Shown here one piece after another: positions 8,668 through 57,179 of a stretch of 64,000 nucleotides of DNA. The position numbers and the translations under genes were made by a program. The notes under the pieces are model-generated. The model searched no databases. It was not told where the DNA came from and saw nothing but the letters and a program-made list of their open reading frames with translations. The stretch covers positions 28,101 to 92,100 of the forward strand of contig JBHHZJ010000001.1 in assembly GCA_046758005.1 (NCBI GenBank), written 5' to 3'. This stretch comes from Kiloniellaceae bacterium (GTDB lineage Bacteria; Pseudomonadota; Alphaproteobacteria; Kiloniellales; J153). Each line of letters begins with the position of its first letter. Position 1 is the first letter of the stretch.

Positions 8668-10086
8668 TCAACCGCCCGCGGCGGCGCTCTTCGTGCCGTC
8701 CGCCGGGTCGCCGAGGTCCGCCGAGCACACCCGGTTGCGGCCGCTGCGCTTGGCGGCATAAAGCGCCGCGTCGGCGCGCCCGAGCAGGCTTTCCGTCGTC
8801 TCCATGGGGTCGGTCGTCGTCGCCACCCCGATCGATGCGGTGATCTTGAGCGGCCGCTCGCAGCCGCTCGCCGGAAACGGCTCCGCCTCGAGGCGGCCGC
8901 GCAAACGCTCGGCCACCGCGATCGCCACATCGGCCAACGTGTTCGGCATGATGACGATGAATTCCTCCCCGCCGTGCCGGGCCAGGAGATCGAAGTCGCG
9001 AATGCTCGTCCCGACCCGCCGGGCCACGCCCTTGAGGACGTCGTCGCCTGCCGCGTGCCCGTGGGTGTCGTTGACGGCCTTGAAGTGATCGATGTCGAAG
9101 AGCATGACCGAGACCGGCTTGTTGGTGTCGCCGATTTCCATGATCTTGCGGTCAAGATGGGCGTTCATGTAGCGCCGATTGTAGATTCCGGTCAGCGAAT
9201 CCGTGTAGGCCATGGACACGCTTTTCTCGAGCATGTTGCGCAACTGATCGTGATAACGCCGGCGCCGGATCTGGGTCCGCGTGCGCGCGCGCAACTCGTT
9301 GCGGTCGATCGGCCGGATCAGGTAGTCGGTCACGCCGAGATCGAGACCCTTGGCCAGCTCCTGGAGGTCGTCTGCCTCCAGGATCAACAGGATGGGCACG
9401 TGGCGCGTCGCGTCATGAGTCCGGAACTGCGAGCACAGCCGCAGCCCGTCCTCGCCCGATAGCTTCAAGCTGACGATGATGAGATCCGGGACGCGCTCGC
9501 GGCCGCTCTCCAAAGCCTGCACGCCCGAGGCCGCCCGCGCCACCTCGTGGCCCGCCTCGGTCAGGTAGGCGCTCAACGTCTTGGCGGTCACCTCATGGCT
9601 TTCGACCAAGAGGATTTTGCCGTGTTCGTCGTCGTCTTCGTCGCCCCATGCCCCGTCTCCGGAAACGTCGAGCTGCCCGGTCGCGGCATGGCGGACGCGC
9701 AGCTCGTCCATCATCACCTTGAGCCGTGTGAGCGAGCGCACGCGCGCGAACAGGGCGACGTCGTTGACCGGTTTGGAGAGAAAGTCGTCGGCCCCGGCTT
9801 CGAGCCCGCGCACCCGGTCGCTCGTATCGCTGAGCGCCGTGACCATGACGACGGGGATGTGCCGTGTCTTCGGATCGCCTTTGAGGCGCCTGGCGACCTC
9901 GAAACCGTCCATGCCCGGCATCATGACGTCGAGCAGGATAAGGTCGGGCGCCTGAGTGGCTGCGGCCTCCAGGGCGGAGGGCCCGTCGCTTGCGGTCAGA
10001 ACCTCGAAGTACTCGGCCGTCAGCTTGGCCTCGAGCAACTTCACGTTGGCCGGGATGTCGTCAACAACGAGAATCCTGGCAGACAT
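8668..10086 (-). CDS. pleD: PleD-type response regulator diguanylate cyclase (REC-REC-GGDEF)
   Basis: MSARILVVDDIPANVKLLEAKL...DLILLDVMMPGMDGFEV (REC1), a second degenerate REC, and a GGDEF domain with an intact GGEEF site (LARHGGEEFIVIMP) plus an RxxD-type I-site context. It lies directly downstream of divK, as in Caulobacter. Confidence 0.9.
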   Translation of the reverse strand: MSARILVVDDIPANVKLLEAKLTAEYFEVLTASDGPSALEAAATQAPDLILLDVMMPGMDGFEVARRLKGDPKTRHIPVVMVTALSDTSDRVRGLEAGADDFLSKPVNDVALFARVRSLTRLKVMMDELRVRHAATGQLDVSGDGAWGDEDDDEHGKILLVESHEVTAKTLSAYLTEAGHEVARAASGVQALESGRERVPDLIIVSLKLSGEDGLRLCSQFRTHDATRHVPILLILEADDLQELAKGLDLGVTDYLIRPIDRNELRARTRTQIRRRRYHDQLRNMLEKSVSMAYTDSLTGIYNRRYMNAHLDRKIMEIGDTNKPVSVMLFDIDHFKAVNDTHGHAAGDDVLKGVARRVGTSIRDFDLLARHGGEEFIVIMPNTLADVAIAVAERLRGRLEAEPFPASGCERPLKITASIGVATTTDPMETTESLLGRADAALYAAKRSGRNRVCSADLGDPADGTKSAAAGG

Positions 10087-11954: not shown

Positions 11955-13294
11955 GCGCGCTCTGCCAAAGCTGCCTGACCACCTTCGAGGATGACCCGGG
12001 CGGGCCCGCGAACGCCGGCCGTTGTCCGGCGTGCGGCGCGCCGCGGCTGCTCGCGCACCCGGAGCTGCACGCGCTCACCATCGCCCACATAGACTGCGAC
12101 GCCTTCTACGCCAACGTGGAGAAGCGCGACCGGCCCGAGCTGCGCGACAAGCCGGTCATCGTTGGTGGCGGCCGAAGGGGCGTGGTGTCGGCCGCCTGTT
12201 ACGTGGCCCGCCTCTACGGCATCCACTCGGCCATGCCCATGTTCAAGGCGCTGAAAGCGTGCCCGGACGCCGTGGTCCTGCGGCCCGACATGGCCAAGTA
12301 CCAGCGCATCGGACGCCGCATCCGGGACATGATGCTGGAGGTCACCCCCCTGGTCGAGCCGCTATCCATCGACGAGGCCTTCCTCGACCTCTCCGGCACC
12401 GAGGTCCTGCACGGCGGTTGGCCGGCCCGCACGCTGGCGAGGCTCGCCCAGCGAATCGAGGCGGAGCTGGACCTCACCGTTTCGATCGGGCTCAGTTACA
12501 ACAAATTCCTGGCCAAGATTGCTTCCGACCTGGACAAGCCGCGCGGCTTCGCGGTCGTCGGCCGGGCCGACGCGCCCCGCTTCCTCGAGGATAAGCCGGT
12601 GCGCATCGTCTGGGGCGTGGGCAAGGCGCTGCAACAAGCGTTGGAGCGGGACGGCATCAGGACGATCCGGGACCTGCGCGGGCACGAGGACGCGCGCCTG
12701 ATCGCCCGTTACGGCGCAATGGGCCGGCGCCTCTGCCGCTTCGCCCGCGGCCGGGACGACCGCCGCATCGAGCCGAACGCGCCGGCCAAGAGCGTCTCCG
12801 CGGAGACCACCTTCGACGAGGACATCGCCGACCCGCGGGTCCTGCGCGCCCGGCTCTGGCCGCTGTGCGAAAAGGTGGCGGCCCGGATGAAGCGCGCCGG
12901 CCTGGCGGGCCGCGGTGTCACGCTCAAGCTGAAAAGCCACGATTTCCGGCAGCTCAGCCGGAGCCGTCGGCTCGGCGACCCGACGTGCCTGGCCGAGGTG
13001 CTCTACCGCGCCGCCCTGCCGCTGCTCGAGCGCGAGGCCGACGGGCGGCGCTTCCGCCTCATCGGCATCGGCGCGAGCGACTTGGTGGACGGGGCGCTCG
13101 CCGACCCTCCGGACCCGCTGAACCCCGACCGGGAACGCCAAGTTCGGGTCGAGAAGGCCATCGATGCGGTGCGCGCCAAGCTCGGCGAGGCCGCGATCGG
13201 CAAGGGCCGCGGCCTGGAGCCCAAGGCGCCGGCCAAACGGGCGCAACCGCCCCGGGTGCGGCCGGAGCATGCACGAACGCCCAAGAGCGGCTAA
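11951..13294 (+). CDS. dinB: DNA polymerase IV (Y-family) with an N-terminal Cys4 zinc-ribbon extension
   Basis: IAHIDCDAFYANVEKRDRPELRDKPVIVGG..RGVVSAACYVARLYGIHSAMPMFKA...LSIDEAFLDLSGTE is the DinB core. It is preceded by CQSC...CPACGAPRL. The GTG at 11951 overlaps the ROK stop (GTGA). An alternative ATG is at 11894. Confidence 0.9.
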   Translation: MSALCQSCLTTFEDDPGGPANAGRCPACGAPRLLAHPELHALTIAHIDCDAFYANVEKRDRPELRDKPVIVGGGRRGVVSAACYVARLYGIHSAMPMFKALKACPDAVVLRPDMAKYQRIGRRIRDMMLEVTPLVEPLSIDEAFLDLSGTEVLHGGWPARTLARLAQRIEAELDLTVSIGLSYNKFLAKIASDLDKPRGFAVVGRADAPRFLEDKPVRIVWGVGKALQQALERDGIRTIRDLRGHEDARLIARYGAMGRRLCRFARGRDDRRIEPNAPAKSVSAETTFDEDIADPRVLRARLWPLCEKVAARMKRAGLAGRGVTLKLKSHDFRQLSRSRRLGDPTCLAEVLYRAALPLLEREADGRRFRLIGIGASDLVDGALADPPDPLNPDRERQVRVEKAIDAVRAKLGEAAIGKGRGLEPKAPAKRAQPPRVRPEHARTPKSG

Positions 13295-14130
13295 CACCCC
13301 GGCGGGGGCAGGGCCTCGAGGAACTCCAGGTCGGCGCGCAGCGCGAAGTCGCCGTAATCGAGCACGAGCTCGTCCACCACGCCGTTGGCGAACAGGCGCA
13401 GGGCCTGCTCGTGTTCCGGCTCGGCCACGGTCTCGTCCGTGCCGAAGAACGCCAGGTGCAGGCGCCAGGACCTCTGGCCGCGCAACAGGGGAGAATCGAA
13501 GCGCAACTCGCGGTCGGCCGGCAGCGATTGCGATAGCGCCGCGTTGACGCCGAACAGGCCTTCGTCGCCGGAGCCGTCGAAGACCGAGCGCCACAGCGGC
13601 ATCTCGCCGCGCTCGGCCGCGTCCATCAGGACCAGCGAATGTGCCGTGGGAAACAGCGTGCCCTTGGGCAGGACGACCTCGCGCGGCTCCGGCTCGCTGT
13701 AGGTCGCAAGGCCGCCCGCGCCGGGTCCGCGCAGGCGCGCCTCGCCGCGCAGTTCCTCGCTCGTGGCGCCGGCGTTCAGACGGCGGATGAAGAAGCGGTA
13801 GCGCAACCCGTCCTTGGCCTCGAAGGCGCTCAAGGTCCACCCGAAGTCGATGACCCGGCCTTCGGCGGAGACCATCTGGACCCGCGTGCGCTGACTGACG
13901 GCCCAGCCGGTGCACACGTCCGCCCATTGGAACTCAAGCTTGCCGTGTGCCTGGGTGACCGAGTTGCCGCCGCCGGCCGCCTTGGCCAGGCTCAGCTGAT
14001 AGACCGCGCGGTGCGGTGTGATGACCGGCCCGGCGAGCGCGGCGGGCCCGGCGAACAGGGCCGGCCACGGCCCGAAAAAGGCGAGCACGGCCCACGTCGC
14101 GCGCAGGACAAGGCGGCCAGGATGCGACAT
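13291..14130 (-). CDS. Secreted conserved protein, tentatively DUF1849 / EipB-like cell-envelope protein
   Basis: ATG at 14130 gives a 279-aa product with a signal peptide (MSHPGRLVLRATWAVLAFFGPWPALFAGPAALAGP). Its size and pattern recall the alphaproteobacterial DUF1849 family. The family assignment is from memory and unverified. Its stop overlaps the dinB stop by 4 nt (convergent). Confidence 0.5.
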   Translation of the reverse strand: MSHPGRLVLRATWAVLAFFGPWPALFAGPAALAGPVITPHRAVYQLSLAKAAGGGNSVTQAHGKLEFQWADVCTGWAVSQRTRVQMVSAEGRVIDFGWTLSAFEAKDGLRYRFFIRRLNAGATSEELRGEARLRGPGAGGLATYSEPEPREVVLPKGTLFPTAHSLVLMDAAERGEMPLWRSVFDGSGDEGLFGVNAALSQSLPADRELRFDSPLLRGQRSWRLHLAFFGTDETVAEPEHEQALRLFANGVVDELVLDYGDFALRADLEFLEALPPPGC

Positions 14131-14383
14131 GCGCGGCTCCCCGTCGGGCGCGGACGGCCGGCGGGCCCCGCCGCCGACGCCGGTCCCGGATGTGATCGGC
14201 CGGGACAATAGCACTCGGATACGCGCCGGCAACGCCCAATTCACGACGCGCCGCCGTGCGCCACCGTTCCCGACGCCGATGCTCTCGCCGCGGCCACCGA
14301 ACGTGTTATGACAGCGGGCTTGGCCCCCGCCGGCCAGGGCGGCCAAGGCATCCTTGGAACCAAGCAACGCTCGGGGAGGTCCG

Positions 14384-15349
14384 ATGAGTGCAAAAGCCGC
14401 CGTTCTCGTCACGCGCAAATTGCCGGACGCCGTCATGCAACGACTCGCCCGCGAGTTCGATGCTCGTTTGAACGAAGACGACCGCCTCTATGGCCCCGAC
14501 GAAGTCATTGAGCGCTCTCGCGGCTGCGACGGCATCCTGTGCTGCTCGTCGGAGAAGTTCACCGCCGAATTGATCGGGAATCTGCCGGACGGCGTGCGGG
14601 CATTGGCAACTTTCTCGGTGGGTACGGAGCACATCGACCTCGCGGCCGCCAAGCGGCGCGAACTCATCGTCACCAACACGCCCGAGGTGCTGACCGATTC
14701 GACCGCCGACATCGCCATGCTGCTGATGCTGGGCGCGGCGCGGCGCGCCTACGAGGGCGAGCGGATGGTGCGCGAGGACCGTTGGACCGGCTGGACGCCG
14801 ACCCAGCTGCTCGGCGTGCACGTCACCGGCAAGCGCCTGGGCGTCCTCGGCATGGGGCGCATCGGTCGGGCCGTGGCGCGGCGCGCCCGCGGCTTCGACA
14901 TGGTCGTCCACTACCACAACCGGACGCGCCTGCCGCCCGAGCTGGAGGACGGCGGCGTCTACCACGCCGGGCCGGAGGACCTGCTCCGCGCCTCGGACTT
15001 CCTGTCGATCCACTGCCCGGCCACGCCGCAGACCCACCATTTCCTCGACGCCCGGCGGATCGGCCTGCTGCCCGACGGCGCGATCGTGATCAACACGGCG
15101 CGCGGCGCGATCGTCGACGACGCGGCGCTGATCGCCGCGCTCAAGGCAGGCAAGCTGGCCGCCGCCGGGCTGGACGTTTTCGAGGGCGAGCCGCGAATCC
15201 ACCCCGGCTACCGGAAGCTGGACAACGTCTTCCTCCTGCCGCATCTGGGCAGCGCCACCCTGGAGACCCGCAACGCCATGGGCTTCAAGTGCTGCGACAA
15301 CCTGGACGCGATCTTTGCCGGGCGGGAGCCGCCCGACCGGGTCGTCTGA
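14384..15349 (+). CDS. D-isomer-specific 2-hydroxyacid dehydrogenase (glyoxylate/hydroxypyruvate reductase-like)
   Basis: NAD-binding motif GKRLGVLGMGRIGRAVARRA. Catalytic region LLPDGAIVINTARGAIVDDAALIAALKAGKLAAAGLDVFE.EP...LPHLGSAT. The ATG at 14384 is preceded by GGGGAGG. Confidence 0.85.
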   Translation: MSAKAAVLVTRKLPDAVMQRLAREFDARLNEDDRLYGPDEVIERSRGCDGILCCSSEKFTAELIGNLPDGVRALATFSVGTEHIDLAAAKRRELIVTNTPEVLTDSTADIAMLLMLGAARRAYEGERMVREDRWTGWTPTQLLGVHVTGKRLGVLGMGRIGRAVARRARGFDMVVHYHNRTRLPPELEDGGVYHAGPEDLLRASDFLSIHCPATPQTHHFLDARRIGLLPDGAIVINTARGAIVDDAALIAALKAGKLAAAGLDVFEGEPRIHPGYRKLDNVFLLPHLGSATLETRNAMGFKCCDNLDAIFAGREPPDRVV

Positions 15350-15512: not shown

Positions 15513-16232
15513 ATGAACCTGAGCCACGTCGAGACCGAAATCGGCCCCTTCGGCGGAGACCCCGTGCCGCCCCTGTGCGCGGCCGCCGACCGGCTGCGCC
15601 GCCTGGCGGCCCGGCGGGTCGAGCCGGTCGGCCCGAGCGAGCGCGAACTGATCGACCAGGTGCTCGCGGCCGCGGCCCGGGCCGAGCAGGCCCTGGCCGT
15701 GCAGCGTGCGCGCATCCGCCACCTGGAGAGCCTGTCGATGACCGACGAGCTGACCGGCCTGCTCAATCGCCGGGGCCTGCGCCTGGAGCTCGACCGGGCG
15801 CTCGCCAGGGCGCAGCGGAGCCGGGAGACGGGCCAACTGGTGCTCTGCGACCTGGACCGCTTCAAGGCGATCAACGACTCCTACGGCCACATGGCCGGGG
15901 ACGCGGTGCTCTGCGCCGTGGCCGGGCTGCTGCAGGCCAAGACGCGGCGCAGCGACTACGTGGCGCGGCTGGGCGGCGACGAGTTCGCCGTGCTCCTGAC
16001 CCAAAGCGCCCCGGCGCAGGCCGAGCCCCGGATGACGACGCTGGCCCGGGCGGTCAACGGCCTGATCGTGGAGTGGAACGGGCACCGCATCCCGGTCACG
16101 GCCAGTTTCGGCGCCGAGGGCTACCATTGGGGCAGCCAGCCCGAGACGCTGCTGTTCCTCGCCGACCGGGCGCTCTACCGGCACAAGGGCCCGCGCCTGG
16201 TCAGCACGACCCCGGACCGCGCGGCGTCCTGA
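15513..16232 (+). CDS. GGDEF-domain diguanylate cyclase (short N-terminal coiled-coil region)
   Basis: DELTGLLNRRGL...CDLDRFKAINDSYGHMAGDAVL...RLGGDEFAVLL is an intact GGDEF active site. Confidence 0.8.
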   Translation: MNLSHVETEIGPFGGDPVPPLCAAADRLRRLAARRVEPVGPSERELIDQVLAAAARAEQALAVQRARIRHLESLSMTDELTGLLNRRGLRLELDRALARAQRSRETGQLVLCDLDRFKAINDSYGHMAGDAVLCAVAGLLQAKTRRSDYVARLGGDEFAVLLTQSAPAQAEPRMTTLARAVNGLIVEWNGHRIPVTASFGAEGYHWGSQPETLLFLADRALYRHKGPRLVSTTPDRAAS

Positions 16233-46569: not shown

Positions 46570-48081
46570 TCAGCCCTCGTAGTTGTCCGCGACCCAGCGG
46601 TCGAGCAGGCGCACGCCGAAGCCGGTGCCGCCTTTCGCCGCGACCGGCTTGTCCTTGGACCCCCAGGTCACGCCCGCGATGTCCAGGTGCGCCCACGGCG
46701 TGCCCTTCTTGATGAAGCGCTGCAGGAACTGCGCCGCGGTGATCGACCCGGCGGAGCGGTTGCCCACGTTCTTCATGTCCGCGGCGTCGCTGTCGACGGC
46801 CTTGTCGTAGGCCTCGCCGAGCGGCATGCGCCACAGCGGCTCGCCGACGCTCTTACCCGCGGCCACAAGCTGCTCGGCCAGCTTGTCGTCGTTGCTGAAC
46901 AAGCCGGCGTGCTCGTGGCCGAGCGCGACGATGATGGCCCCGGTCAGGGTGGCCAGGTCGATGACCGCCCGCGGCTTGAACTTCTCCTGCGCGTACCACA
47001 GCGCATCCGCCAGGACCAGCCGGCCCTCGGCGTCGGTGTTGATCACCTCGATGGTCTGGCCGGACATGGAGGTCACGATGTCGCCGGGGCGCTGCGCAGT
47101 GGCCGAGGGCATGTTTTCGACCAAGCCGCACACGCCGAGCGCATCGACCTTGGCCTTGCGGCCCGCGAGCGCGCGCATCAGCCCGATCACCACACCGGCG
47201 CCCCCCATGTCCCACTTCATGTCCTCCATCTTTGCCGCCGGCTTGATCGAGATGCCGCCGGTGTCGAACGTGACGCCCTTGCCGACGAAGGCGACCGGCC
47301 CGGCGCCCTTCTTGCGGCGGGCACCGTTCCAGCGCATGACCAGCAGTTGCGGCTCCCGGGCCGAGCCCTGTCCGACGCCCAGCAGCGCCCCCATGCCCAA
47401 CCGGCGCATCTCCCGCTCGCCCAGGACCTCGACCGCGACGCCGAGTTTCTGCAACTTCTTGGCTTCCGCGGCCAAGCTTCTGGGATATATGACGTTGGCT
47501 GGCTCCGACACGAGGTCGCGCGTGAAGAACACACCGGCGGCGACCTTCTGCAAGTCGGCGAACGCCCGTTTCGCCGCGGCCGGATTTTCGACCATGATCG
47601 TCACCGCCTTGAGGCTGGGCTTGTCCTCCGGCTTTTCCTTGGTCTTGTACTTGTCAAACCGGTAGGAGCGGAGCAGCGCGCCGAGCCCGTAGCGGGCCGC
47701 CCGGTCGGGCGGGCTCTGCGCGAACTCCTTGATCCCATCCACCATGATGGCGACTTCCTGCTCGCCGGTGCCGCTCAGGTGGGCGACCACCGCGCCGCCG
47801 AGGTGCTCGAGATCGACGTCCTTGAGTTCGCCGGGCTTGCCGAGGCCGACCAGCAGCACGCGGCTGTTGCCGAGCCCAGCCGGCGCCAGGATGTCGAGCA
47901 CCTGTCCCTTCTTGCCCTTGAAGCGGCTCTGCTTCATGGCGCGGGCGAGCGCGCCGCCGGTGGCCTTGTCGAGCCGGGCGGCGGTGGGCGAGAACTTGCC
48001 GCCCTCCATCGCGCCGGTGGCGATTGCGCCCACCTTGGGCAGGCTGGGGGCGGCGAAGTCGATCTTGATCTTCATGGACAT
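46570..48081 (-). CDS. pepA: Leucyl aminopeptidase (M17)
   Basis: VGKGVTFDTGGISIKP, M..DMGGAG, and the NTDAEGRLVLADAL signature. Confidence 0.95.
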   Translation of the reverse strand: MSMKIKIDFAAPSLPKVGAIATGAMEGGKFSPTAARLDKATGGALARAMKQSRFKGKKGQVLDILAPAGLGNSRVLLVGLGKPGELKDVDLEHLGGAVVAHLSGTGEQEVAIMVDGIKEFAQSPPDRAARYGLGALLRSYRFDKYKTKEKPEDKPSLKAVTIMVENPAAAKRAFADLQKVAAGVFFTRDLVSEPANVIYPRSLAAEAKKLQKLGVAVEVLGEREMRRLGMGALLGVGQGSAREPQLLVMRWNGARRKKGAGPVAFVGKGVTFDTGGISIKPAAKMEDMKWDMGGAGVVIGLMRALAGRKAKVDALGVCGLVENMPSATAQRPGDIVTSMSGQTIEVINTDAEGRLVLADALWYAQEKFKPRAVIDLATLTGAIIVALGHEHAGLFSNDDKLAEQLVAAGKSVGEPLWRMPLGEAYDKAVDSDAADMKNVGNRSAGSITAAQFLQRFIKKGTPWAHLDIAGVTWGSKDKPVAAKGGTGFGVRLLDRWVADNYEG

Positions 48082-48302
48082 CCCCTCGGCACTGTCTCAC
48101 AAACCGGGAAACGCGCGCCGTGGCTGACGCCCGCGGCGGCGGCGAAACGCGATCGTGCGCGTACTGCGATATCTGCACGCCCACGGGGCTGTCAACTTCT
48201 TGTCGCACGAAGGAACGCACCGCCGCCGCGCACGGACCCCCGCGCGCGGACGCCGCGATGTGGCTTCCCCTTTGCCCGCCGCGCGTCTATCGTTAGGGCC
48301 GA

Positions 48303-49427
48303 ATGCAGGGGATTAATCGTTACATATTCAACCAGCTTCTCGCCGCCACGGTCGCGATCACCGTGGGCCTGACGTTCGCCGTTTGGCTCACCCAATCGCT
48401 GCGGCTGTTCGATTTCATCGTGAACCGCGGACTTCCCGCCTCGACGTTCTTCTCCTTCGTCGCCCTGCTTCTGCCCTCGTTCGTAGGCATCGTGTTGCCG
48501 ATCGCAACCTTCTGCGCCGTGCTGTTCGTGTATCACAAGCTGATCATGGACAGCGAGCTCGTGGTGCTGCGCGCAGCGGGGCTGTCGCAGCTCCAGCTCG
48601 GCCGCCCGGCCTTTCGGCTGGCCCTGGTCGCCACCCTCGTTGTGTACAGCATTTCGCTATACTTTCTTCCGGCCTCCTACCGGGCGTTCAAGGACCTGCA
48701 GTACCGCCTGCGCGACGACTTCTCCACCGTCCTGCTGCAGGAAGGCGCATTCAATACCGTGACCGACGGGATCACGGTGTACGTGCGCGACCGCACGCCA
48801 AAGGGCGAGCTGCTCGGGATCCTGGTGCACGATACCCGGGACCCGGAGAAGCCCGTGACGATGATGGCCGAACGCGGCGCCCTCGTGCAAAGCGAGACGG
48901 GGCCGCGGGTGGTGATGGTCAACGGCAACCGGCAGCAGCGCGAGGACGACAGCGGACGGGTCTCGCTGCTCTACTTCGACCGGTATACGGTGGAGCTGGC
49001 GCGCCTGCAGGAGACCGTGCACACGCGCTGGCGGGAACCCAAGGAACGCTACTTGGGCGAGCTGTTCAATCCGACCCAACATCCGAGCGACCAGTACTAC
49101 CGCAAGGAGCTCGTGGCCGAAGGTCATCAGCGCCTGATCATGCCCTTGTATACGGTGGCATTCGTCCTGATCGGCCTGGCGGCGCTCCTGTCCGGCGAAT
49201 TCAACCGGCGCGGCCAAACGCGCCGTGTGCTGCTGGCCATCTTCATCGTGGCGTTGCTCGAGGCGCAGTCGCTCACTCTGCACGACTTGGCCGTCGGCTC
49301 GACAGAGGCGATACCGGCTATGTACGCGGGCGTGGGCCTGCCGATCCTGGGCGGCTTGGCCGTGCTGCTGCGAAGGCCGCGGCGGCGCGCCGCCCGGGGC
49401 GACACCGCACAGGCTGCGGTCCAATGA
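48303..49427 (+). CDS. lptF: LPS export ABC transporter permease LptF
   Basis: INRYIFNQLLAATVAITVGLTFAVWLTQSLRLFDFIV is the YjgP/YjgQ family N-terminus. It has 6 TM segments with a periplasmic insert and is divergent from pepA. Confidence 0.85.
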   Translation: MQGINRYIFNQLLAATVAITVGLTFAVWLTQSLRLFDFIVNRGLPASTFFSFVALLLPSFVGIVLPIATFCAVLFVYHKLIMDSELVVLRAAGLSQLQLGRPAFRLALVATLVVYSISLYFLPASYRAFKDLQYRLRDDFSTVLLQEGAFNTVTDGITVYVRDRTPKGELLGILVHDTRDPEKPVTMMAERGALVQSETGPRVVMVNGNRQQREDDSGRVSLLYFDRYTVELARLQETVHTRWREPKERYLGELFNPTQHPSDQYYRKELVAEGHQRLIMPLYTVAFVLIGLAALLSGEFNRRGQTRRVLLAIFIVALLEAQSLTLHDLAVGSTEAIPAMYAGVGLPILGGLAVLLRRPRRRAARGDTAQAAVQ

Positions 49428-50551
49428 CGCGCGTCCTCGACGCCCCCGGCATGCGGCGCTTGCGCCTGTCGGCGACCCTGTCGGGCTACACCGCGCGCCA
49501 GTACGCCTTCTGGTTCGTGAGCTTCCTCCTCGCCCTGACCGGAGTGATCCTCCTGGTCAGCACGGTCGATCTGCTTGACCGCCTGGCCACGAAGAACGCG
49601 TCGCTCGCCGTCGTAATTCACATGGTCCTGCTCAAGCTCCCGTACCTCAGCCAGGAGGTCATGCCGTTCACCATCCTGCTCGCCGGGTTGACGTGCTTCT
49701 GGCGGCTGACGCGCTCGCACGAGCTGGTGATCACGCGCGCGGCGGGCATCTCGATCTGGCAGCTCCTGCTGCCGCCCCTGGCGGTGGCGCTGCTGGTCGG
49801 GGCGCTCACCGTGGGCGCGTTCAATCCGGTGGCCTCGGTCCTGCTCGGCCGGTTCGAGCAGCTCGAGGCCAAGTACATCCGCAATCAGACGAGCACTCTG
49901 GCGATCTCGAGCAGCGGGCTGTGGCTGCGGCAGGCCGACCCGGACGGCCAGTCGGTCATCCATGCCCAGCGGGTGACCAACGATCCGATGGTGCTGCATT
50001 CCGTCATCGTGTTCCGGTTCGCCGACCAGGACCGATTCCTGGAGCGCGTCGATGCCAAGCGCGCCGAGCTGGCGGCCGACCGCTGGCTGCTCTACGAGGC
50101 CTGGCAATCCAAGCCCGGCGCGCCGCCCCGTTATCATCCGGAAATGGAAATCCCGACCGGGCTGACCCGCGAGAAGATCCTGAACAGCTTCGCGCCGCCC
50201 GAGACCATTTCGTTCTGGAGCCTGCCCGGTTTCATCAACCTGCTGGAGAAGGCCGGGTTTTCGGCGGTGCGCCACAGGCTCCAGCTGCACCGCCTGCTGG
50301 CGACGCCGATCCTGTTCGCCGCCATGGTGCTTCTGGCGGCCACGTTTTCCCTGCGGCCGCAGCGACGCGGCCGGGTCGGCCTGATCATCCTCGGGGGCGT
50401 GCTGACCGGGTTCCTGGTCTATTTCCTGTCCAATTTCGTGTTCGCCTTAGGCCTGTCGACCAAAATTCCGGTCGTTCTCGCCGCCTGGACGCCGGCTGGC
50501 GTCAGCCTCATGCTCGGCATCGCCACGCTGCTCCATCTCGAAGATGGTTAG
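49424..50551 (+). CDS. lptG: LPS export ABC transporter permease LptG
   Basis: The ATG at 49424 overlaps the lptF stop (ATGA). LSGYTARQYAFWFVSFLLALTGVILLVSTVDLLDR is the YjgP/YjgQ family. 375 aa. Confidence 0.85.
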   Translation: MTRVLDAPGMRRLRLSATLSGYTARQYAFWFVSFLLALTGVILLVSTVDLLDRLATKNASLAVVIHMVLLKLPYLSQEVMPFTILLAGLTCFWRLTRSHELVITRAAGISIWQLLLPPLAVALLVGALTVGAFNPVASVLLGRFEQLEAKYIRNQTSTLAISSSGLWLRQADPDGQSVIHAQRVTNDPMVLHSVIVFRFADQDRFLERVDAKRAELAADRWLLYEAWQSKPGAPPRYHPEMEIPTGLTREKILNSFAPPETISFWSLPGFINLLEKAGFSAVRHRLQLHRLLATPILFAAMVLLAATFSLRPQRRGRVGLIILGGVLTGFLVYFLSNFVFALGLSTKIPVVLAAWTPAGVSLMLGIATLLHLEDG

Positions 50552-50559
50552 ACGCGGCC

Positions 50560-52764
50560 ATGCTGGGGGGAATCAAGACGGCCGTCGGGGCCCTCGCTGG
50601 AGCGCTGCTGCTCCTGGGGGCGCTCGCTTGGCCGGTCGCCGCCCAGGGCTTGATCAGCGACGTTCCGGCGCTGATTAGCGCCGATCGGATCACCTACGAC
50701 GAGAACCTGGGCGTGGTGACCGCCTCGGGCAACGTCGAGATTTCGCAGGACGGCCGGGTGCTGCTCGCCGACACCGTCTCGTACAACGTGCGCAACGACG
50801 TGGTCAGCGCGTCCGGCAACGTCTCGCTCTTGGAGCCGACCGGCGAGGTGATCTTCGCCGACTTCGTCGAACTGACGCAGAGCCTGCGCGAGGGCTTCAT
50901 TCGCGACATTCGGATTCTGCTCACTGACCGAAGCCGGCTGGCCGCCGCCAGCGCGCTGCGCACCGGCGGCAACAGGACGGTCTTCCGCAAGGCCGTGTTC
51001 AGCCCGTGCGAGCTGTGCCGGGAGGATCCCACGCGGGCGCCGCTTTGGCAGCTCAAGGCGATCGAAGTCGAGCACGACCAGGAGGACAAGGTCATCCGTT
51101 ACCGGGACGCCTGGATGGAGATCTTCGGGGTACCCGTGTTCTACACCCCGTATTTCGAACACCCGGACCCGACGGTCGAGCGCAAGACCGGTTTCCTCGC
51201 CCCGACCATCGGCAGTTCGGAGGTGCTCGGCGCCACCTACCAGCAACCGTTCTACTGGGCGATCGGCCCCAACCGGGACGCCACGATCGCGCCCATCATC
51301 ACGACCAAGCAGAGCATCGCCGTGGCCGGCGAATACCGTGAACTTTACCCCTACGGCACGGTCACCTTGCGCGGCAGCGGCACCGTCGCCGACCGCGAGG
51401 AGACGGACGGCACAATCGAGGAAGACCGCTTTCGCGGACACATCGACGGCACCGGCCGCTTCGAGATCAACCAGACCTGGCGCTCGGGCGTCGACGTCCA
51501 GCGCGCGACCGATGATACCTACCTGCGAATCTACAACTTTTCCACGGCCCGGACGTTGACCAGCCGGGCTTTCGTGGAGGGGTTCAACGGGCGCAACTAC
51601 CTGGCCGCCAACGGGTATCTGTTCCAGGGACTGCGCGCCACCGACCGCCAGTCGGAATCGCCCATCGTCCTGCCGCTGGTCGACTACAACTACGTCGGCG
51701 AGCCGGGCGTGGCCGGCGGCCACAACACCCTGGACGCGAACCTGATGGCGCTGACGCGCCGCGACGGGCGCGACAGCCGCCGGCTGTCGGCCTCCGTGGG
51801 CTGGGAGTTGCCCTATACGGGGCCGGCGGGGGACGTCTACACCGTCACGGCCCGCGTGCAGGGCGACGGCTACTGGGTGAACGACGTCGATCCGGAGAGC
51901 GACGAGGTCAATCCGACGGGTCCGAGAGTCGACGACCTCACCGGGCGAATCCTTCCCCAACTCGCGGTCAAATGGCGCTATCCCTGGGTGCGCCACGACG
52001 GCAGCATCAATCAGGTCGTCGAGCCCATGGCTCAGGCGGTGGCCGCCCCCGGCGGCGCCAACCCGGACGAGATCCCGAACGAGGACAGTCTCGACTTCGA
52101 GTTCGACGACACGAACCTCTTCAGCCTGAACCGCTTCCCCGGTTTGGACCGCGTCGATTCCGGATCGCGTTTCGATTATGGCATCCAGTGGACGCTCACG
52201 GGCGAGGGCGTGGGATACACGAGCGCATTCATCGGCCAGAGCTTCCGGGTGCGGGAGGCGGACGTGTTCCCGGACAACTCGGGCGTGGAGGACAACTTTT
52301 CCGACATCGTCGGCCGCGTGCAGGTCAAGCCGACCCACGAACTCGATCTGCTATACCGGTTCCGCTTTGACAAGGACGACCTCGAGGCGCGGCGCAGCGA
52401 GGTCGACGTCCGCGTCGGTCCCCCGGCGCTTAACCTGGATCTGGGCTACATCTTCATCGATTCCGAACTCGGCCAGGACGAGTTCGGCGAGCGTGAGGAG
52501 CTAAACTGGACCTTGAGCTCGAAACTGAGCCGGTACTGGTCCGCCTTCGGGGGGCAGCGCATCGACCTCACCAAGAGCGAGACCCGGCAGGCCCGCGTCG
52601 GATTGACCTACCAGGACGAATGCTTCCTGATCCAGGCCGTGGCGGAACGAAATTTCTTCTCGGACCGGGAGATCGAACCCGAGAATTCCTTCTTCGTCAG
52701 CATCGTGTTCAAGCACTTGGGCGGCGTCTCTACCGCCGATACTCCAAATTTGTTCCAGCAGTAG
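50560..52764 (+). CDS. lptD: LPS-assembly outer-membrane protein LptD
   Basis: Signal peptide, then an OstA-like N-terminal domain (ADRITYDENLGVVTASGNVEISQDGRVLLADTVSYN...VSASGNV) and a large beta-barrel (FGVPVFYTPYF..PDP...RKTGFL.P). 734 aa. Confidence 0.9.
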   Translation: MLGGIKTAVGALAGALLLLGALAWPVAAQGLISDVPALISADRITYDENLGVVTASGNVEISQDGRVLLADTVSYNVRNDVVSASGNVSLLEPTGEVIFADFVELTQSLREGFIRDIRILLTDRSRLAAASALRTGGNRTVFRKAVFSPCELCREDPTRAPLWQLKAIEVEHDQEDKVIRYRDAWMEIFGVPVFYTPYFEHPDPTVERKTGFLAPTIGSSEVLGATYQQPFYWAIGPNRDATIAPIITTKQSIAVAGEYRELYPYGTVTLRGSGTVADREETDGTIEEDRFRGHIDGTGRFEINQTWRSGVDVQRATDDTYLRIYNFSTARTLTSRAFVEGFNGRNYLAANGYLFQGLRATDRQSESPIVLPLVDYNYVGEPGVAGGHNTLDANLMALTRRDGRDSRRLSASVGWELPYTGPAGDVYTVTARVQGDGYWVNDVDPESDEVNPTGPRVDDLTGRILPQLAVKWRYPWVRHDGSINQVVEPMAQAVAAPGGANPDEIPNEDSLDFEFDDTNLFSLNRFPGLDRVDSGSRFDYGIQWTLTGEGVGYTSAFIGQSFRVREADVFPDNSGVEDNFSDIVGRVQVKPTHELDLLYRFRFDKDDLEARRSEVDVRVGPPALNLDLGYIFIDSELGQDEFGEREELNWTLSSKLSRYWSAFGGQRIDLTKSETRQARVGLTYQDECFLIQAVAERNFFSDREIEPENSFFVSIVFKHLGGVSTADTPNLFQQ

Positions 52765-52952: not shown

Positions 52953-53477
52953 GTGCGGCGCGCCGTATCGTTCTCGGTGCTGTCGATCCTGTTGCTGGGA
53001 GCGAGCCCGCCCGCGGCTGCCGAGGGGGCGGCCTACGCCCGTGCCCCGGCCGTCAAGGCCGACAAGATCGTCGTCCTCAAGGGCGCGCGCCGGCTACTCC
53101 TGCTGCGCCAAGGCGCGGTCGTGCGCGCCTACCGCGTCGCCCTCGGACGCAATCCGAACGGGGCGAAGGTCCGCGAGGGCGACGGCCGGACCCCGGAGGG
53201 GCGCTACGTGCTGGATTGGCGCAACCCGCGCAGCCGGTTCTACCGCTCGATCCACATCTCCTATCCGAACCCGGCGGACCGCGCGCGGGCGCGCCGGCTC
53301 GGCGTGGCGCCCGGCGGCGACATCATGATCCACGGCTTTCCACGGCGCCTGGAAGCGCCGGGGGCGCAGCACGGCCGATGGGACTGGACAAATGGCTGCA
53401 TCGCCGTCACGAATGCGGAAATGGATGAAATCTGGCATGCCGTGGCCGATGGGACGCCGATCGAGATCCTGCCTTAG
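52953..53477 (+). CDS. YafK/LdtF(DpaA)-like YkuD-fold protein (secreted)
   Basis: The GTG at 52953 follows GGGGAAG. A signal-like N-terminus is followed by GDGRTPEGRYVLDWRNPRSRFYRSIHISYPNPADRARA...GGDIMIHG...TNGCIAVTNAEMDEIW. This parallels E. coli YafK (GDFKSPEGFY...DSRYYKAINIGFPNAYDRAHG...YLMIHG...SIGCYAMTNQGIDEIF). Confidence 0.75.
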   Translation: MRRAVSFSVLSILLLGASPPAAAEGAAYARAPAVKADKIVVLKGARRLLLLRQGAVVRAYRVALGRNPNGAKVREGDGRTPEGRYVLDWRNPRSRFYRSIHISYPNPADRARARRLGVAPGGDIMIHGFPRRLEAPGAQHGRWDWTNGCIAVTNAEMDEIWHAVADGTPIEILP

Positions 53478-53630
53478 GCCCCGGTCGCGCGGATTCGGTT
53501 TGATCGAGATCAACGCGATGCGCCGGAGCGACCCCTAGTGTTGCCCCTTTCGTATCGCGCAGCACGCATCGAGCGTGCAACGTCTGCTCGTAGACGTACG
53601 ACCTTGGAGGGACTCTATCGGGAGGATGAC

Positions 53631-53918
53631 ATGCGTTCTTTGGCGAGGTTCACCGCGGCGGTCGCACTCGTGTCCCCGGTCCTTCTCGCGGCAGGGTGCG
53701 CTAAACAGGGCGACCTCGACGCCCTGCGCAGCGACGTCAGCGCGATCCGCAGCGACCTGGACTCGCTGCGCAGCGAGATGGCGCAAAGCCAAAGCGTGGC
53801 CCGCAAGGCCGCGGACGATGCGGCCGCCGCCGCCGCCGAGGCGCGCCGCGCGTCAAGCGAGGCGAAAGCGGCCAGCGACAAGGCCGACCGGATCTACCGA
53901 CAGTCGCTGCGCAAGTAG
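53631..53918 (+). CDS. lpp: Braun-lipoprotein (Lpp)-like alanine-zipper lipoprotein with C-terminal Lys
   Basis: GGAGGA lies 4 nt before the ATG at 53631. Signal plus lipobox: MRSLARFTAAVALVSPVLLAAGC. Heptads LDALRSDVSAIRSDLDSLRSEM...AADDAAAAAAEARRA compare with E. coli Lpp [39 protein letters not shown]. The product ends ...SLRK (E. coli ...KYRK). Confidence 0.65.
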   Translation: MRSLARFTAAVALVSPVLLAAGCAKQGDLDALRSDVSAIRSDLDSLRSEMAQSQSVARKAADDAAAAAAEARRASSEAKAASDKADRIYRQSLRK

Positions 53919-53942
53919 CGGCGGTTCGGCACGGGGCGGCGG

Positions 53943-54848
53943 TTAGCGCGTGATCCGGACCGGCACACCCCGGCGTTCGGCCGCCGCCCGCTGGATTGCC
54001 GGCCAGTCGAGCCGAACCGCCTGATCAGCCGCAGCGCGCACGACTCGCCACGCCAGGTCGGATACGGCCGCCGGCGTGAAGCGGCCCTGCGCCTCGATCT
54101 CGTCGGCCTGCGCCTGCGTCGGGTGGACCTCCAGATACAGTTCGCCGCCCGAGCGGCCGAGCTTGACCGGCTGGTCGATGACGGTGACGCGCGTGCCGAC
54201 CGTCACCCGCTCGAACAGACGCGCGATGTCCTCCGGGTAGAGGCGTATGCAGCCGTGGCTGACCCGGCGGCCGATCCCGTCGGGCTTGTTCGTGCCGTGG
54301 ATGACGAAGCCGCGCCAGCCGAGGTCGAGCGCGTAGGCGCCGAGAGGGTTGTTCGGGCCGGGCGGCACCGCGGCCGGCAGGTCGGGTTGTTCGGCGCGGA
54401 TCGACGGCGGCGGAATCCAGGTCGGGTTCGTGCGTTTGCCGACGACTTCGGTGCGGCCGAGCGGCGTCTCCCAACCCTGCCTTCCGATCCCGATCGGAAA
54501 GCTCATGACCGGCTCGCCCGGGCCGGAAAAGTAATAGAGCCGCTGCTCGGCCAGGTTGATCACGATCCCGTCCCGCGGCCCCTCGGGCAGCACGTGCGCC
54601 GCAGGCAGCAGCAGGCGGGCGCCGGCCCCCGGCAGCCACGGATCCACACCGGGGTTGGCGGCGCGCAGCTCGACGAAGCCGAGGTCGTAGCGCCGCGCGA
54701 TCCCGATCAGGGTCTCGGTCTCGCCGACCTTGTGCGTCGCGATGCTGCCGACCAGGTCGCCGGTCCGCGGGGCCGCGCCAGCGGCGCCGTTTGCCCCACT
54801 CAAGAGGGCGGCGAGCACGCCCAGAACGGCCACGATTCTCTCGCGCAT
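53943..54848 (-). CDS. L,D-transpeptidase of the ErfK/YbiS/YcfS type (LysM + YkuD + C-terminal domain)
   Basis: Colinear with E. coli ErfK: HKVGETETLIGIARRYDLGFVELRAANPGVD.WLP, GIVINLAEQRLYYF, PIGIGRQGWETP, NPTWIPP, VPPGPNNPLGAYAL, HGTN...GIGRRVSHGCIRLYPEDI, VIDQPVK, and the C-terminal GVPVRITR. Confidence 0.85.
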   Translation of the reverse strand: MRERIVAVLGVLAALLSGANGAAGAAPRTGDLVGSIATHKVGETETLIGIARRYDLGFVELRAANPGVDPWLPGAGARLLLPAAHVLPEGPRDGIVINLAEQRLYYFSGPGEPVMSFPIGIGRQGWETPLGRTEVVGKRTNPTWIPPPSIRAEQPDLPAAVPPGPNNPLGAYALDLGWRGFVIHGTNKPDGIGRRVSHGCIRLYPEDIARLFERVTVGTRVTVIDQPVKLGRSGGELYLEVHPTQAQADEIEAQGRFTPAAVSDLAWRVVRAAADQAVRLDWPAIQRAAAERRGVPVRITR

Positions 54849-54873: not shown

Positions 54874-55878
54874 TCAAATCCAGCGGGCGAGGCGCCCGAC
54901 GGCCGCGCGGTGATCCAGGCGCCCGAGGCCGTAACGGCGGGCCAATTGGAGCGCGTCGCGATATTCCGCGGAGGTGATGGGACGGTTGATTTCCGGGGCC
55001 TCCGCCGCCTTGAAGCACGGCCGGTACTGGTCCATCAGGTTCAGGTAGGTGTCGGGCGAGATTTCCTCGGCCAGGAACCTGATGACATCCTCGCTCCCCG
55101 CGATCCCGCCCGGCAGGACCAGGTGACGGACCAGCAGGCCGCGCCGCGCGAGGCCGTCCTCGTCGAGCACCAGGTCGCCGACCTGGCGGTGCATTTCGCG
55201 CAGCGCCGCCCGGTTGTGCCGAACGTAGTCCTTGATGTGCGAGTACCGCCGGGCGAGCCCCGACTCCCCGTACTTCATGTCGGGCATGTAGACGTCGATC
55301 ACGCCGTCGAGCAGGGCGAGCGCCTCCGGGCTGTCGCAGCCCCCGGTGTTGTAGACCAGCGGCAGGCGCAGTCCCCGCGCCGCCGCGATGGCCACCGCGG
55401 CCAGGATTTGCGCTACCACGTGGCTCGGACTGACCAGGTTGACGTTGTGGCAACCCATCTCCTGGAGGCGCAGCATCATCGCCGCAAGCTGCTCGGCCGT
55501 GACCTCGTGGCCCTCGCCCTTCCAGCTGACCTCCCAGTTCTGACAGTAGACGCAGCGCAGGTTGCACCAGGAAAAGAAGATCGTGCCGGACCCGCGCCAG
55601 CCGCGCAGGCAGTCCTCCTCGCCGTGATGCGGCCCATAGGACGAGACGATCGCGCGCGCCCCCGTGCGGCAGACCGCGCCTCGCACGCTCTCCTTGCGGT
55701 TCACGCGGCAATACCGGGCGCAAAGATCGCAGTCCTCCAGGCGCCGGTCGGCCAGCCGGGCGCGCTCGGCCAGTTCGCCGGAGCGCACGAGGCCGAGGTA
55801 GGCCGGATCGAGGTCGCGCCGTGCGCTTCCCGGCCGCGTTGCACCCATGCCGGCGACCGCGGTCTGTGAAACGCTCAT
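54874..55878 (-). CDS. Radical SAM protein, PflX-like (homologue of pyruvate formate-lyase activase; COG1313-type)
   Basis: CX3CX2C motif CNLRCVYCQN, preceded by an extra Cys cluster (CDLCARYCRVNR...CRTG). The rest resembles my recollection of PflX-type proteins (VNLVSPSHVVAQIL...VYNTGGCDS...VDVYMPDMKY). The ATG at 55878 gives 334 aa. It is 25 nt upstream of the LDT gene on the same strand. Confidence 0.8.
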   Translation of the reverse strand: MSVSQTAVAGMGATRPGSARRDLDPAYLGLVRSGELAERARLADRRLEDCDLCARYCRVNRKESVRGAVCRTGARAIVSSYGPHHGEEDCLRGWRGSGTIFFSWCNLRCVYCQNWEVSWKGEGHEVTAEQLAAMMLRLQEMGCHNVNLVSPSHVVAQILAAVAIAAARGLRLPLVYNTGGCDSPEALALLDGVIDVYMPDMKYGESGLARRYSHIKDYVRHNRAALREMHRQVGDLVLDEDGLARRGLLVRHLVLPGGIAGSEDVIRFLAEEISPDTYLNLMDQYRPCFKAAEAPEINRPITSAEYRDALQLARRYGLGRLDHRAAVGRLARWI

Positions 55879-55908
55879 GACCTTTTCCTTCCGCCGGCCA
55901 GGCCGGCG

Positions 55909-55929
55909 CTTGCACAACGTCTGTGCAAG
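55909..55929. promoter_or_regulatory. 21-bp perfect palindrome CTTGCACA-ACGTC-TGTGCAAG in the divergent radical-SAM intergenic region (candidate operator)
   Basis: Read directly: 8-bp arms at 55909-55916 and 55922-55929. The site lies 31 nt from the PflX-like ATG (55878) and 18 nt from the earliest possible amrS start (55947). Confidence 0.4.
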
Positions 55930-55946
55930 CTTAACATAAGCATAAG

Positions 55947-57179
55947 GTGCGGGCCCGCGAGGTCATTGATTCGGGTCGACATCGGGTGGCTCCGAACGTG
56001 ACAGGTGCGAGCCGGCGGACCGGCCCGGGAATCCGGCGAATCCATGGACGCCCCGTGCAAGACGCCTCGACCCTCGTAGGAACGAAGTACTGGCACCGGC
56101 TCGACGACGGGCGGGTCCAGTGCGACCTCTGCCCGCGCCTGTGCAAGCTGCGCGAGGGCCAGCGAGGGCTGTGTTTCATCCGCGCCTGCCAGGACGGCCG
56201 GATCGTGTTGACCTCCTACGGGCGATCCAGCGGCTTCTGCGTCGATCCCATCGAGAAGAAACCCCTGTTCCACTTCCTGCCGGGCACTCCGGTTTTGTCG
56301 TTCGGCACGGCCGGCTGCAACCTCGCGTGCCGCTTCTGCCAGAACTGGGACATCAGCAAGTCGCGCGAGATCGACACCCTGGCCGACGAGGCCGCGCCGC
56401 AGGTCGTGGCCCGCGCGGCCAGGGACCTGAATTGCCGCAGCGTCGCGTTCACTTACAACGATCCGGTGATCTTTCACGAGTACGCCATCGACGTGGCCCA
56501 GGCCTGCCGCGAGGCGGGCGTCAAGACGGTGGCGGTGACCGCAGGCTACGTCTGCGCCGCGCCGCGTGCGGAGTTCTACCGCTATATGGACGCGGCCAAC
56601 GTGGACCTCAAGGCGTTCACGGAGCGCTTCTACCACCGGGTCTGCAGCGGCGCCCTGGCCCCCGTCCTCGAAACTCTCGTCTATCTCAAGCGGGAAACCG
56701 AGGTCTGGTTCGAGCTGACCACCCTGCTGATCCCCGGAGAGAACGACTCCGAGGCCGAGCTCGAGGAGATGACGGCGTGGGTCGTGGACAATCTCGGCCC
56801 CGACGTGCCCATGCACTTCACCGCCTTCCACCCCGACTGGAAGATGCTCGACAAGCCGCCGACCCCGCCGGAGACGCTCAAGCGCGCGCGTCGGATCGCG
56901 CTGAAAAACGGGGTCCGGTACGCCTACACCGGCAACATCCGCGACGTCGAAGGGGGCACCACGTGCTGTCACGGCTGCGGGCGGCCCCTGATCGGGCGGG
57001 ACTGGTACGCGCTCACCGCCTGGAGCCTCACCGCGGCCGGCGCCTGCCCGGCGTGCGGCGCGCCCTGCGCCGGGGTGTTCGAGGGGCGTCCGGGGCGCTG
57101 GGGCCAGCGGCGCCTGCCCGTCCACCTCGCCGACTGGGCGATCGAGCGGCCGGCCCGAACCGGGGCGCATCCGGCCTGA
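55947..57179 (+). CDS. AmmeMemoRadiSam-system-type radical SAM enzyme (AmrS-like)
   Basis: VQCDLCPRLCKLREGQRGLCFIR, GFCVDPIEKKPLFHFLPG..VLSFGTAGCNLACRFCQNWDIS, AFTYNDPVIF.EYAIDVA, VAVTAGY, DAANVDLKAF, LLIPGENDS, PMHFTAFHPDWKM, and the C-terminal CHGCG...CPACG. The start is uncertain: GTG at 55947 or GTG at 56055. Confidence 0.8.
   Translation: MRAREVIDSGRHRVAPNVTGASRRTGPGIRRIHGRPVQDASTLVGTKYWHRLDDGRVQCDLCPRLCKLREGQRGLCFIRACQDGRIVLTSYGRSSGFCVDPIEKKPLFHFLPGTPVLSFGTAGCNLACRFCQNWDISKSREIDTLADEAAPQVVARAARDLNCRSVAFTYNDPVIFHEYAIDVAQACREAGVKTVAVTAGYVCAAPRAEFYRYMDAANVDLKAFTERFYHRVCSGALAPVLETLVYLKRETEVWFELTTLLIPGENDSEAELEEMTAWVVDNLGPDVPMHFTAFHPDWKMLDKPPTPPETLKRARRIALKNGVRYAYTGNIRDVEGGTTCCHGCGRPLIGRDWYALTAWSLTAAGACPACGAPCAGVFEGRPGRWGQRRLPVHLADWAIERPARTGAHPA

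Follow-up and report, generated by a model that had tools for sequence, protein, structure and literature searches.

A putative three-gene module for the reversible covalent attachment of the outer membrane to peptidoglycan in an uncultured alphaproteobacterium

The window analyzed here is a 64,000-nucleotide (nt) stretch of contig JBHHZJ010000001.1 (positions 28,101 to 92,100, forward strand) from a Kiloniellaceae bacterium. It contains three adjacent genes, referred to below as A, B, and C, that probably form a module for covalent and reversible outer membrane-peptidoglycan tethering of the Braun-lipoprotein/OprI kind. Gene A (52953–53477, plus strand) encodes a short, secreted YkuD-fold protein of the hydrolase type that resembles DpaA (YafK) and is 174 amino acids (aa) long. 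Gene B (53631–53918, plus strand) encodes the 95-aa precursor of an alanine-zipper lipoprotein of the Lpp/OprI family, predicted to reside in the outer membrane. Gene C (53943–54848, minus strand) encodes a secreted L,D-transpeptidase (LDT) of the ErfK/YbiS/YcfS/YnhG type with 301 aa and is convergent with B, their stop codons being 24 nt apart, while its start lies 25 nt from a radical-SAM gene on the same strand (54874–55917). A preliminary description, made by reading the DNA alone, had placed the three open reading frames (ORFs) and both spacers in exactly this way, and all are present as placed. Its proposal that a substrate lipoprotein, an attaching LDT, and a DpaA-like detaching enzyme make up one module is backed by curated models, catalytic motifs, and synteny, with the detaching role being the weakest of the three.

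The lipoprotein gene is preceded by a GGGAGG located 6 nt ahead of its ATG. The precursor carries the lipobox LLAAG-C23 (within VLLAAG-C23-AKQ) and terminates in SLRK; the mature protein comprises 73 aa from Cys23, has an alanine at position +2, and ends in Arg-Lys. B scores 56.5 bits against NF040598, the NCBIfam model of Lpp/OprI alanine-zipper lipoproteins (cut-off 43), and 30.6 against the Pfam Alanine_zipper family PF11839 (gathering score 23.1). A Pfam scan gave no match to the LPP family PF04728 at E ≤ 0.1, and the Braun lipoprotein model PRK15396 returns 19.7 bits, under its cut-off of 108. When a profile built from B and nine relatives is compared with the PDB, Lpp chains come out on top, with alignments that begin at the lipid-modified cysteine. 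The corresponding hhalign probabilities are 95.8% for E. coli Lpp and 71% for OprI, the alignment with the latter including the C-terminus, and BLASTP aligns B with E. coli K-12 Lpp at 33.8% identity over 65 aa.

The AlphaFold2 model of B is a single uninterrupted helix spanning residues 26–94, with predicted local distance difference test (pLDDT) values of 94–98. The estimated length of this helix is ~10 nm, compared with ~8 nm for Lpp. In the best heptad register, the a and d positions read LVLMAAAAAS and KLILSAAAAIK, 81% of them being hydrophobic or alanine, a pattern in which a Leu/Ile zipper gives way to an Ala zipper. On the basis of these models and motifs, B is an alanine-zipper lipoprotein of the OprI/Lpp type rather than one of the PF04728 type. 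The Lpp-like character assigned to it in the preliminary description holds for the two alanine-zipper models, the lipobox, the heptads, and the terminal lysine, but not for PF04728.

The family to which B belongs has a strongly conserved end. A single-sequence search with B retrieves nine relatives, each ending in (S/N)LRK, and a profile search extends these to 166. An exhaustive hidden Markov model search of 1.84 billion cluster representatives yields 891 matches at E ≤ 1e-3, of which 104 reach E ≤ 1e-10. The relatives of B are labeled Rhodospirillales, Geminicoccaceae, Kiloniellales, Hyphomicrobiales, “Alphaproteobacteria bacterium”, or “Pseudomonadota bacterium”, and all stem from metagenome-assembled genomes (MAGs). 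Some already bear the annotation “alanine-zipper protein” or “Lpp/OprI family alanine-zipper lipoprotein”. In an alignment of 57 sequences, the lipobox cysteine and the terminal lysine are the only invariant columns; PF11839 is matched by 55 of these 57 relatives and PF04728, at E ≤ 0.01, by six. A terminal lysine is found in all 120 relatives among the word-index matches listed (100 of which end in Arg-Lys), and 124 of 131 additional cluster representatives share it. The residue at position +2 is alanine in 195 of 240 family members and aspartate in one.

Counted from the cysteine to the last residue, the mature forms of the same 240 proteins have their length maxima at 52, 59, 66, 73, and 80 residues, each one heptad apart from the next. 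The length of 66 is the most frequent (76 of 240), and the window protein falls on the maximum at 73. Such stepping by whole heptads fits a rigid spacer whose two ends are functionally fixed. The set of lengths also resembles a natural series of tether lengths.

These family traits bear on a different reading of B, in which it remains free, as an alanine-rich coiled-coil lipoprotein without a covalent bond to peptidoglycan, and in which the YkuD-type neighbors merely belong to a shared envelope regulon. The precedent is LirL of A. baumannii, a species said to lack Lpp. LirL is, like B, a small alanine-rich lipoprotein with a predicted coiled coil, and it demonstrates that an abundant lipoprotein of this composition can reside in the inner membrane and remain unlinked to peptidoglycan; it does not complement lpp (PMC9499571). 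LirL, however, ends in histidine, whereas proteins of the B family end in lysine, usually as Arg-Lys, and are encoded next to LDT genes. The heptad-quantized lengths, the near absence of aspartate at +2, and the matches to curated Lpp/OprI models likewise speak for a tether, and a free lipoprotein is most improbable here.

The protein encoded by C has a signal peptide and a YkuD domain (PF03734, 105.8 bits) with the catalytic motif SHGCIR(L). The arginine two residues after the catalytic cysteine (Cys+2) is a feature of transpeptidases (PMC10434034, PMC8263019). The LdtE, PRK10190, and PRK10260 models align with C over its whole length (E values from 2e-61 to 4e-57), residues 23–300 of C corresponding to positions 26–303 of the 322-position LdtE model. 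The scores against these models are 207.9 bits (LdtE, the top NCBIfam match), 197.6, and 193.5, compared with equivalog cut-offs of 480, 517, and 583, so that C reaches the cut-off of none of these single-paralogue models. The preliminary description of C as a LysM-YkuD enzyme colinear with ErfK/YbiS/YcfS is borne out by the YkuD match and the full-length alignment; the LysM portion is weak, with a score of 16.6 against a gathering score of 20.9. The closest solved relatives of C are 9tyw_A (2.8e-75) and 4lzh_A (1.9e-54). Its identity to E. coli LdtA, LdtB, LdtC, and LdtE is 40–41% over the full length (280–310 aligned columns). In a neighbor-joining tree, these four E. coli proteins form a clade of their own, apart from C and its relatives, which indicates that C is co-orthologous to the whole group.

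Gene A starts with a GTG at 52953, preceded by GGGGGGAAG, and the resulting 174 aa coincide with the median for the 120 relatives closest to it. On identical Logan contigs, the gene caller selected an upstream ATG at 52818, which gives 219 aa. Read from the GTG, the N-terminus has the appearance of a signal peptide (MRRAVSFSVLSILLLGASPPAAA/EG). The YkuD domain (PF03734) scores 78 bits. Among sequences of solved structures, the best match is DpaA (8ikr, 1.1e-7), followed by the LD-carboxypeptidase Pgp2 (4.6e-4). Within the E. coli YkuD set, DpaA is again the best, with 28.9% identity over 173 aligned columns and an E value of 7e-17 in that small database; the next protein is at 1e-3.

The catalytic motif of A is TNGCIA, and alanine occupies Cys+2 in 119 of 120 relatives. 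Replacement of the arginine at this position by alanine or asparagine is the signature of the hydrolase subgroup of YkuD proteins (PMC8263019). Criteria that separate DpaA from LD-carboxypeptidases residue by residue are taken from the DpaA structure paper: Lys83 of DpaA binds diaminopimelic acid (DAP), and the D-Ala pocket carries a tryptophan in LD-carboxypeptidases and Met133 in DpaA (PMC10653827). The Lys83 equivalent is invariant in the A family (K71 in the alignment). The position of the pocket tryptophan, Trp158 in Csd6, is methionine in A and in at least 90% of its relatives (M124, within the motif D-I-M-I-H-G), as in DpaA, and the position of DpaA Tyr109 is phenylalanine.

The arrangement of the three genes was compared with 15 further loci (L003–L017), mostly from alphaproteobacterial MAGs. 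These were drawn from a genome-collection scan with a low-complexity back-translated pattern of B, which supplied at least six loci, and from the neighborhoods of nine profile-search matches. The lipoprotein gene adjoins that of a C-type LDT, scoring 275–398 bits to C, in 12 of the 15, and the LDT carries arginine at Cys+2 in all of them except L009, which has histidine; in one more (L008), the LDT gene lies 2.35 kb away. An A-type gene with the motif TxGCIA is found directly upstream of the lipoprotein gene in five (L004, L007, L008, L012, and L014), sharing its strand, as in the window. In L014 (Geminicoccaceae), L007, and L009, the genes run in one direction, and the start of the LDT gene in L014 overlaps the stop codon of the lipoprotein gene. 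Flanking genes are common to L003, L011, L015, and L017 and differ elsewhere, which leaves about 10 independent contexts. Neither lptD nor a radical-SAM gene accompanies the module in any of the 15. The recurrence of the B–C pair in 13 loci and of the complete triad in five, within differing flanks, argues that the grouping is not due to chance. The adjacency of C-type genes to B-type genes in those 13 loci is also what suggests a lipoprotein-anchoring activity for C.

Two of the compared loci have peculiarities of their own. L016 (ENA ERZ26167854, contig_5, 2970–6345) presents an extended module on one strand, consisting of a YkuD protein (307 aa), an Lpp-like lipoprotein (95 aa), a protein with PG_binding_1 and YkuD domains (428 aa), and a Peptidase_M15 protein (170 aa), with a PAS sensor protein and a response regulator encoded upstream. 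L009 is a 3.5-kb contig (DATGZW010000324.1) with a co-directional pair of Lpp-like and LDT genes that is labeled as a Patescibacteria MAG. Since Patescibacteria are not expected to possess an outer membrane, this contig is probably mis-binned.

A mechanism can be proposed in which each of the three proteins has one task. After export and lipidation at Cys23, B would be routed to the outer membrane, from where its coiled coil of ~10 nm, presumably trimeric, would offer the C-terminal lysine to the sacculus. C, as a periplasmic Cys/His LDT, would form an acyl-enzyme with the carbonyl of meso-DAP in a tetrapeptide stem under release of D-Ala and then transfer the DAP carbonyl to the ε-amine of Lys95 in B. 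A, which belongs to the DpaA/LD-carboxypeptidase subgroup of YkuD-fold hydrolases, would most likely cut the DAP-Lys amide and thereby set the ratio of bound to free lipoprotein. The tether and attachment steps are suggested by the family membership of B, its invariant terminal lysine, its heptad-quantized length, and the tight linkage of B and C. The outer-membrane location, the trimer, and the covalent link are predictions, and the substrate of A is one even more so. The detaching function of A is the weakest step and the less certain one, resting on the catalytic motif, the key residues, and the five synteny cases.

Several observations weigh against this mechanism, most of them concerning A. 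The protein scores 44 bits against the NF040599 model (LdtF_DpaA_YafK), far from the cut-off of 365, and matches only positions 67–158 of its 242. DpaA Lys130 and Tyr131 are not conserved in A, DpaA's C-terminal tail (about 60 residues) is missing, and A has a 15-residue insertion ahead of the catalytic cysteine relative to DpaA. A adjoins B in only five of the 15 other loci, and its family numbers more than 7,500 proteins as opposed to 166 in the B family, which implies that most A-type proteins act without such a lipoprotein. With the AlphaFold2 model of A (pLDDT 80) as query, Foldseek ranks the LD-carboxypeptidase Bd1075 (E 7e-8, query TM-score (TMq) 0.52) just above DpaA 8ikr (6e-7, TMq 0.57); the fold does not separate the two, and the residue-level criteria told more about A. 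For C, the difficulty is that it is equidistant in sequence from the Lpp-anchoring LdtA–C and the cross-linking LdtE, and that LDT function does not follow phylogeny (PMC10434034). In addition, ldtE, described as a cross-linking enzyme, is itself the convergent neighbor of lpp in E. coli K-12. Finally, the source organism is known from metagenome assemblies only, and the identical sequence was found in just two of them (SRR29324609 and SRR29324611).

The reservations about A give shape to an alternative in which B and C act as proposed and A is an LD-carboxypeptidase, like Csd6, Pgp2, and Bd1075, or a general peptidoglycan-trimming hydrolase that converts tetrapeptides to tripeptides and so modulates the donor stems available to C. 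The first place of Bd1075 among fold matches would be expected of such an enzyme, as would the alignment with Pgp2, which spans the catalytic loop with short gaps only where that with DpaA needs a gap of 15 residues. A very large family of which most members lack a B-type gene also agrees with it, and it has been proposed that DpaA-like proteins in Lpp-less species may be LD-carboxypeptidases (Winkle et al., PMC8263019). The methionine in place of Csd6 Trp158 nevertheless sides with DpaA, the sequence of A is nearer to DpaA than to Pgp2, and A-type genes stand immediately upstream of B-type genes and share their strand, both in the window and in the five other loci. Taken together, this assignment of A is unlikely, though it deserves to be taken seriously. 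The identification of A as a match to YafK in the preliminary description survives in that DpaA is the best E. coli match, in the TNGCIA motif, and in the equivalents of Lys83 and Met133; it fails with respect to the NF040599 cut-off and the C-terminal tail.

A second alternative concerns C, which could be mainly a 3-3 cross-linking LDT like E. coli LdtE (YnhG), with any attachment of B being carried out by an LDT encoded elsewhere in the genome. The neighborhood of lpp and ldtE in K-12 is the best argument for it, and the LdtE model is indeed the top NCBIfam match of C, by the small margin given above. The separate clade of the four E. coli paralogues, to all of which C is co-orthologous, argues against a special relation to LdtE, and LdtPae2 of P. 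aeruginosa, the sole member of the lineage in that organism, anchors OprI (PMC10434034). For the tight and sometimes overlapping linkage of B and C over about 10 contexts, an enzyme and its substrate are the simplest explanation. A primarily cross-linking C is for these reasons quite unlikely, and anchoring of B by C is preferred.

The preliminary description also supposed that the module was possibly acquired and that it takes the place of the surA-pdxA-rsmA genes downstream of lptD. A recently acquired horizontal cassette of this kind would agree with flanking contexts that differ in almost every genome compared, and none of the 20 other ORFs scanned, which represent part of the window, is surA, pdxA, or rsmA. 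The composition of the three genes is ordinary: their GC content is 0.71–0.72, against 0.696 ± 0.034 in 12 other window genes, and their GC content at third codon positions is 0.86–0.89, against 0.904 ± 0.024. No tRNA was found in the window, no integrase or transposase domain among roughly 30 scanned ORFs (a minority of those in the window), and no flanking repeats of note. B is unmatched by tblastn in 72,556 plasmids. Recent acquisition finds no support in this evidence and is very unlikely.

The region upstream of the module (46570–52764) contains pepA, encoding leucyl aminopeptidase on the minus strand, divergent from lptF-lptG-lptD (48303–52764, plus strand), and the lptD stop codon is 189 nt from the start of the module. 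Scans of 52.0–56.5 kb for promoters and terminators, Rfam families, and inverted repeats gave nothing meaningful, and no hairpin was found in the 24-nt spacer between B and C. On the other side of C, the radical-SAM gene (54874–55917, minus strand) has generic Radical_SAM matches, and the PflX-like label that it had been given could not be confirmed. A functional link between this gene and C was considered and dropped: the 25-nt spacing is treated as incidental, and no radical-SAM gene lies upstream of the LDT gene at the 15 other loci. A second radical-SAM gene (55947–57179, plus strand) encodes an AmmeMemoRadiSam-system enzyme (TIGR04337, 654 bits), with no AMMECR1 or MEMO partner beside it. 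The two radical-SAM genes are divergent with ~29 nt between annotated starts, and their start codons are probably wrongly assigned. They are followed, at about 57.2–58.2 kb, by a gene that by eye resembles an M28 peptidase.

Farther away in the window are a gene for an EipB-like periplasmic envelope-integrity protein (13291–14436, minus strand; PF08904, 207 bits), whose family is characteristic of Alphaproteobacteria, and two genes for GGDEF diguanylate cyclases (8668–10086, minus strand, and 15513–16232, plus strand), one of them with tandem receiver domains. At L012, a GAF-PAS-GGDEF-EAL gene lies just upstream of the triad; its likeness to the GGDEF genes of the window is probably a coincidence. 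The alphaproteobacterial placement of the window derives from how the nearest relatives of A and B are labeled, and the pepA and lptF-lptG-lptD layout and the EipB-like gene agree with it.

The significance of the module lies chiefly in where it is found. A survey of tethering systems confined Lpp to four gammaproteobacterial orders, having screened with PF04728 only and without mention of OprI. A 2023 paper stated that Alphaproteobacteria have no known Lpp homologues, yet reported a Tri-Lys-Arg muropeptide from an unknown donor protein in R. sphaeroides (PMC10470522). Lipoproteins of the OprI/Lpp type that end in lysine and are genetically tied, across several lineages of Alphaproteobacteria, to an ErfK-type LDT contradict the published distribution of Lpp, and the B family supplies a candidate type of donor for the R. 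sphaeroides muropeptide. The preliminary description had asked whether the arrangement is common and already described; it does recur in many alphaproteobacterial MAGs, but a literature search found no description of a lipoprotein-LDT cluster including a DpaA-like gene in Alphaproteobacteria. The lipoprotein-LDT gene pair itself is not new; what was not encountered in that literature is the alphaproteobacterial cluster with the added DpaA-like gene.

The lipoprotein-LDT gene pair may be ancient. As a tentative view, held with somewhat less than even confidence, it could be an old pair that was either mobile or repeatedly retained across Proteobacteria, as represented by lpp-ldtE, oprI-PA2854, and the MAGs of Rhodospirillales, Geminicoccaceae, Kiloniellales, and Hyphomicrobiales. 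Tethering by a C-terminal lysine would then be neither a recent gammaproteobacterial invention nor absent from Alphaproteobacteria, some lineages would have enlarged the pair to an operon by adding a short DpaA-like hydrolase, and tether length would be tuned in whole heptads, from 52 to 80 residues. On this view, (i) the large alphaproteobacterial “YafK-like” family would gain its first concrete substrate and (ii) a heptad-tuned tether length would be the natural counterpart of the experiments with engineered Lpp lengths on periplasm width. The compact and sometimes operonic set of attaching enzyme, substrate, and detaching enzyme is also suited to heterologous reconstitution.

Among known tethers, those of the Alphaproteobacteria Brucella and Agrobacterium and that of Coxiella share with the present module the attachment of outer-membrane proteins to meso-DAP by LDTs and a proposed DpaA-like detachment. 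The substrates in Brucella and Agrobacterium, however, are β-barrels joined via a glycine or an alanine at the N-terminus, not coiled-coil lipoproteins joined via a C-terminal lysine. LimB of Coxiella is linked through an internal lysine, unlike the C-terminal lysine of the Lpp/OprI type.

The chemistry of the E. coli Lpp tether, with LdtA–C and DpaA, is established experimentally (PMC8263019). Lpp and B have in common the lipobox, the coiled coil, and the C-terminal Arg-Lys, and the layout of B and C is the same as that of lpp (1757421–1757657, plus strand) and ldtE/ynhG (1757721–1758725, minus strand) in K-12 (NC_000913.3), which are convergent and 63 nt apart. The E. coli genes had been described as dispersed, which applies to ldtA, ldtB, ldtC, and dpaA, all scattered on the chromosome, but not to this pair. 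E. coli differs in having four paralogous LDTs, scattered apart from ldtE, and a dpaA gene located elsewhere. Mature B exceeds the 58 aa of mature Lpp by 15 residues and, unlike Lpp, falls below PF04728.

A further close parallel is P. aeruginosa, in which oprI is PA2853 and PA2854 encodes a putative LDT, so that lipoprotein and LDT genes are probably neighbors there as well. PA2854 is presumably LdtPae2 (PA14_27180). Mature OprI has ~64 aa compared with 73 aa for B. OprI is, like B, of the alanine-zipper type (PF11839/NF040598), although the profile match between the two is weak (the hhalign value of 71%). It ends in Arg-Lys and is anchored by LdtPae2 only, a single LDT of the ErfK/YbiS/YcfS/YnhG lineage as in the window, and P. 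aeruginosa likewise possesses a counterpart of A, the YafK-like paralogue LdtPae3, with alanine at Cys+2 (PMC10434034). The differences are that the present host is alphaproteobacterial rather than gammaproteobacterial and that the YafK-like gene lies in the same cluster and has a short, 174-aa form. As far as its sequences indicate, the module appears to add a new, alphaproteobacterial member to the known Lpp/OprI-LDT-DpaA system, one that extends an existing mechanism and reveals no new one.

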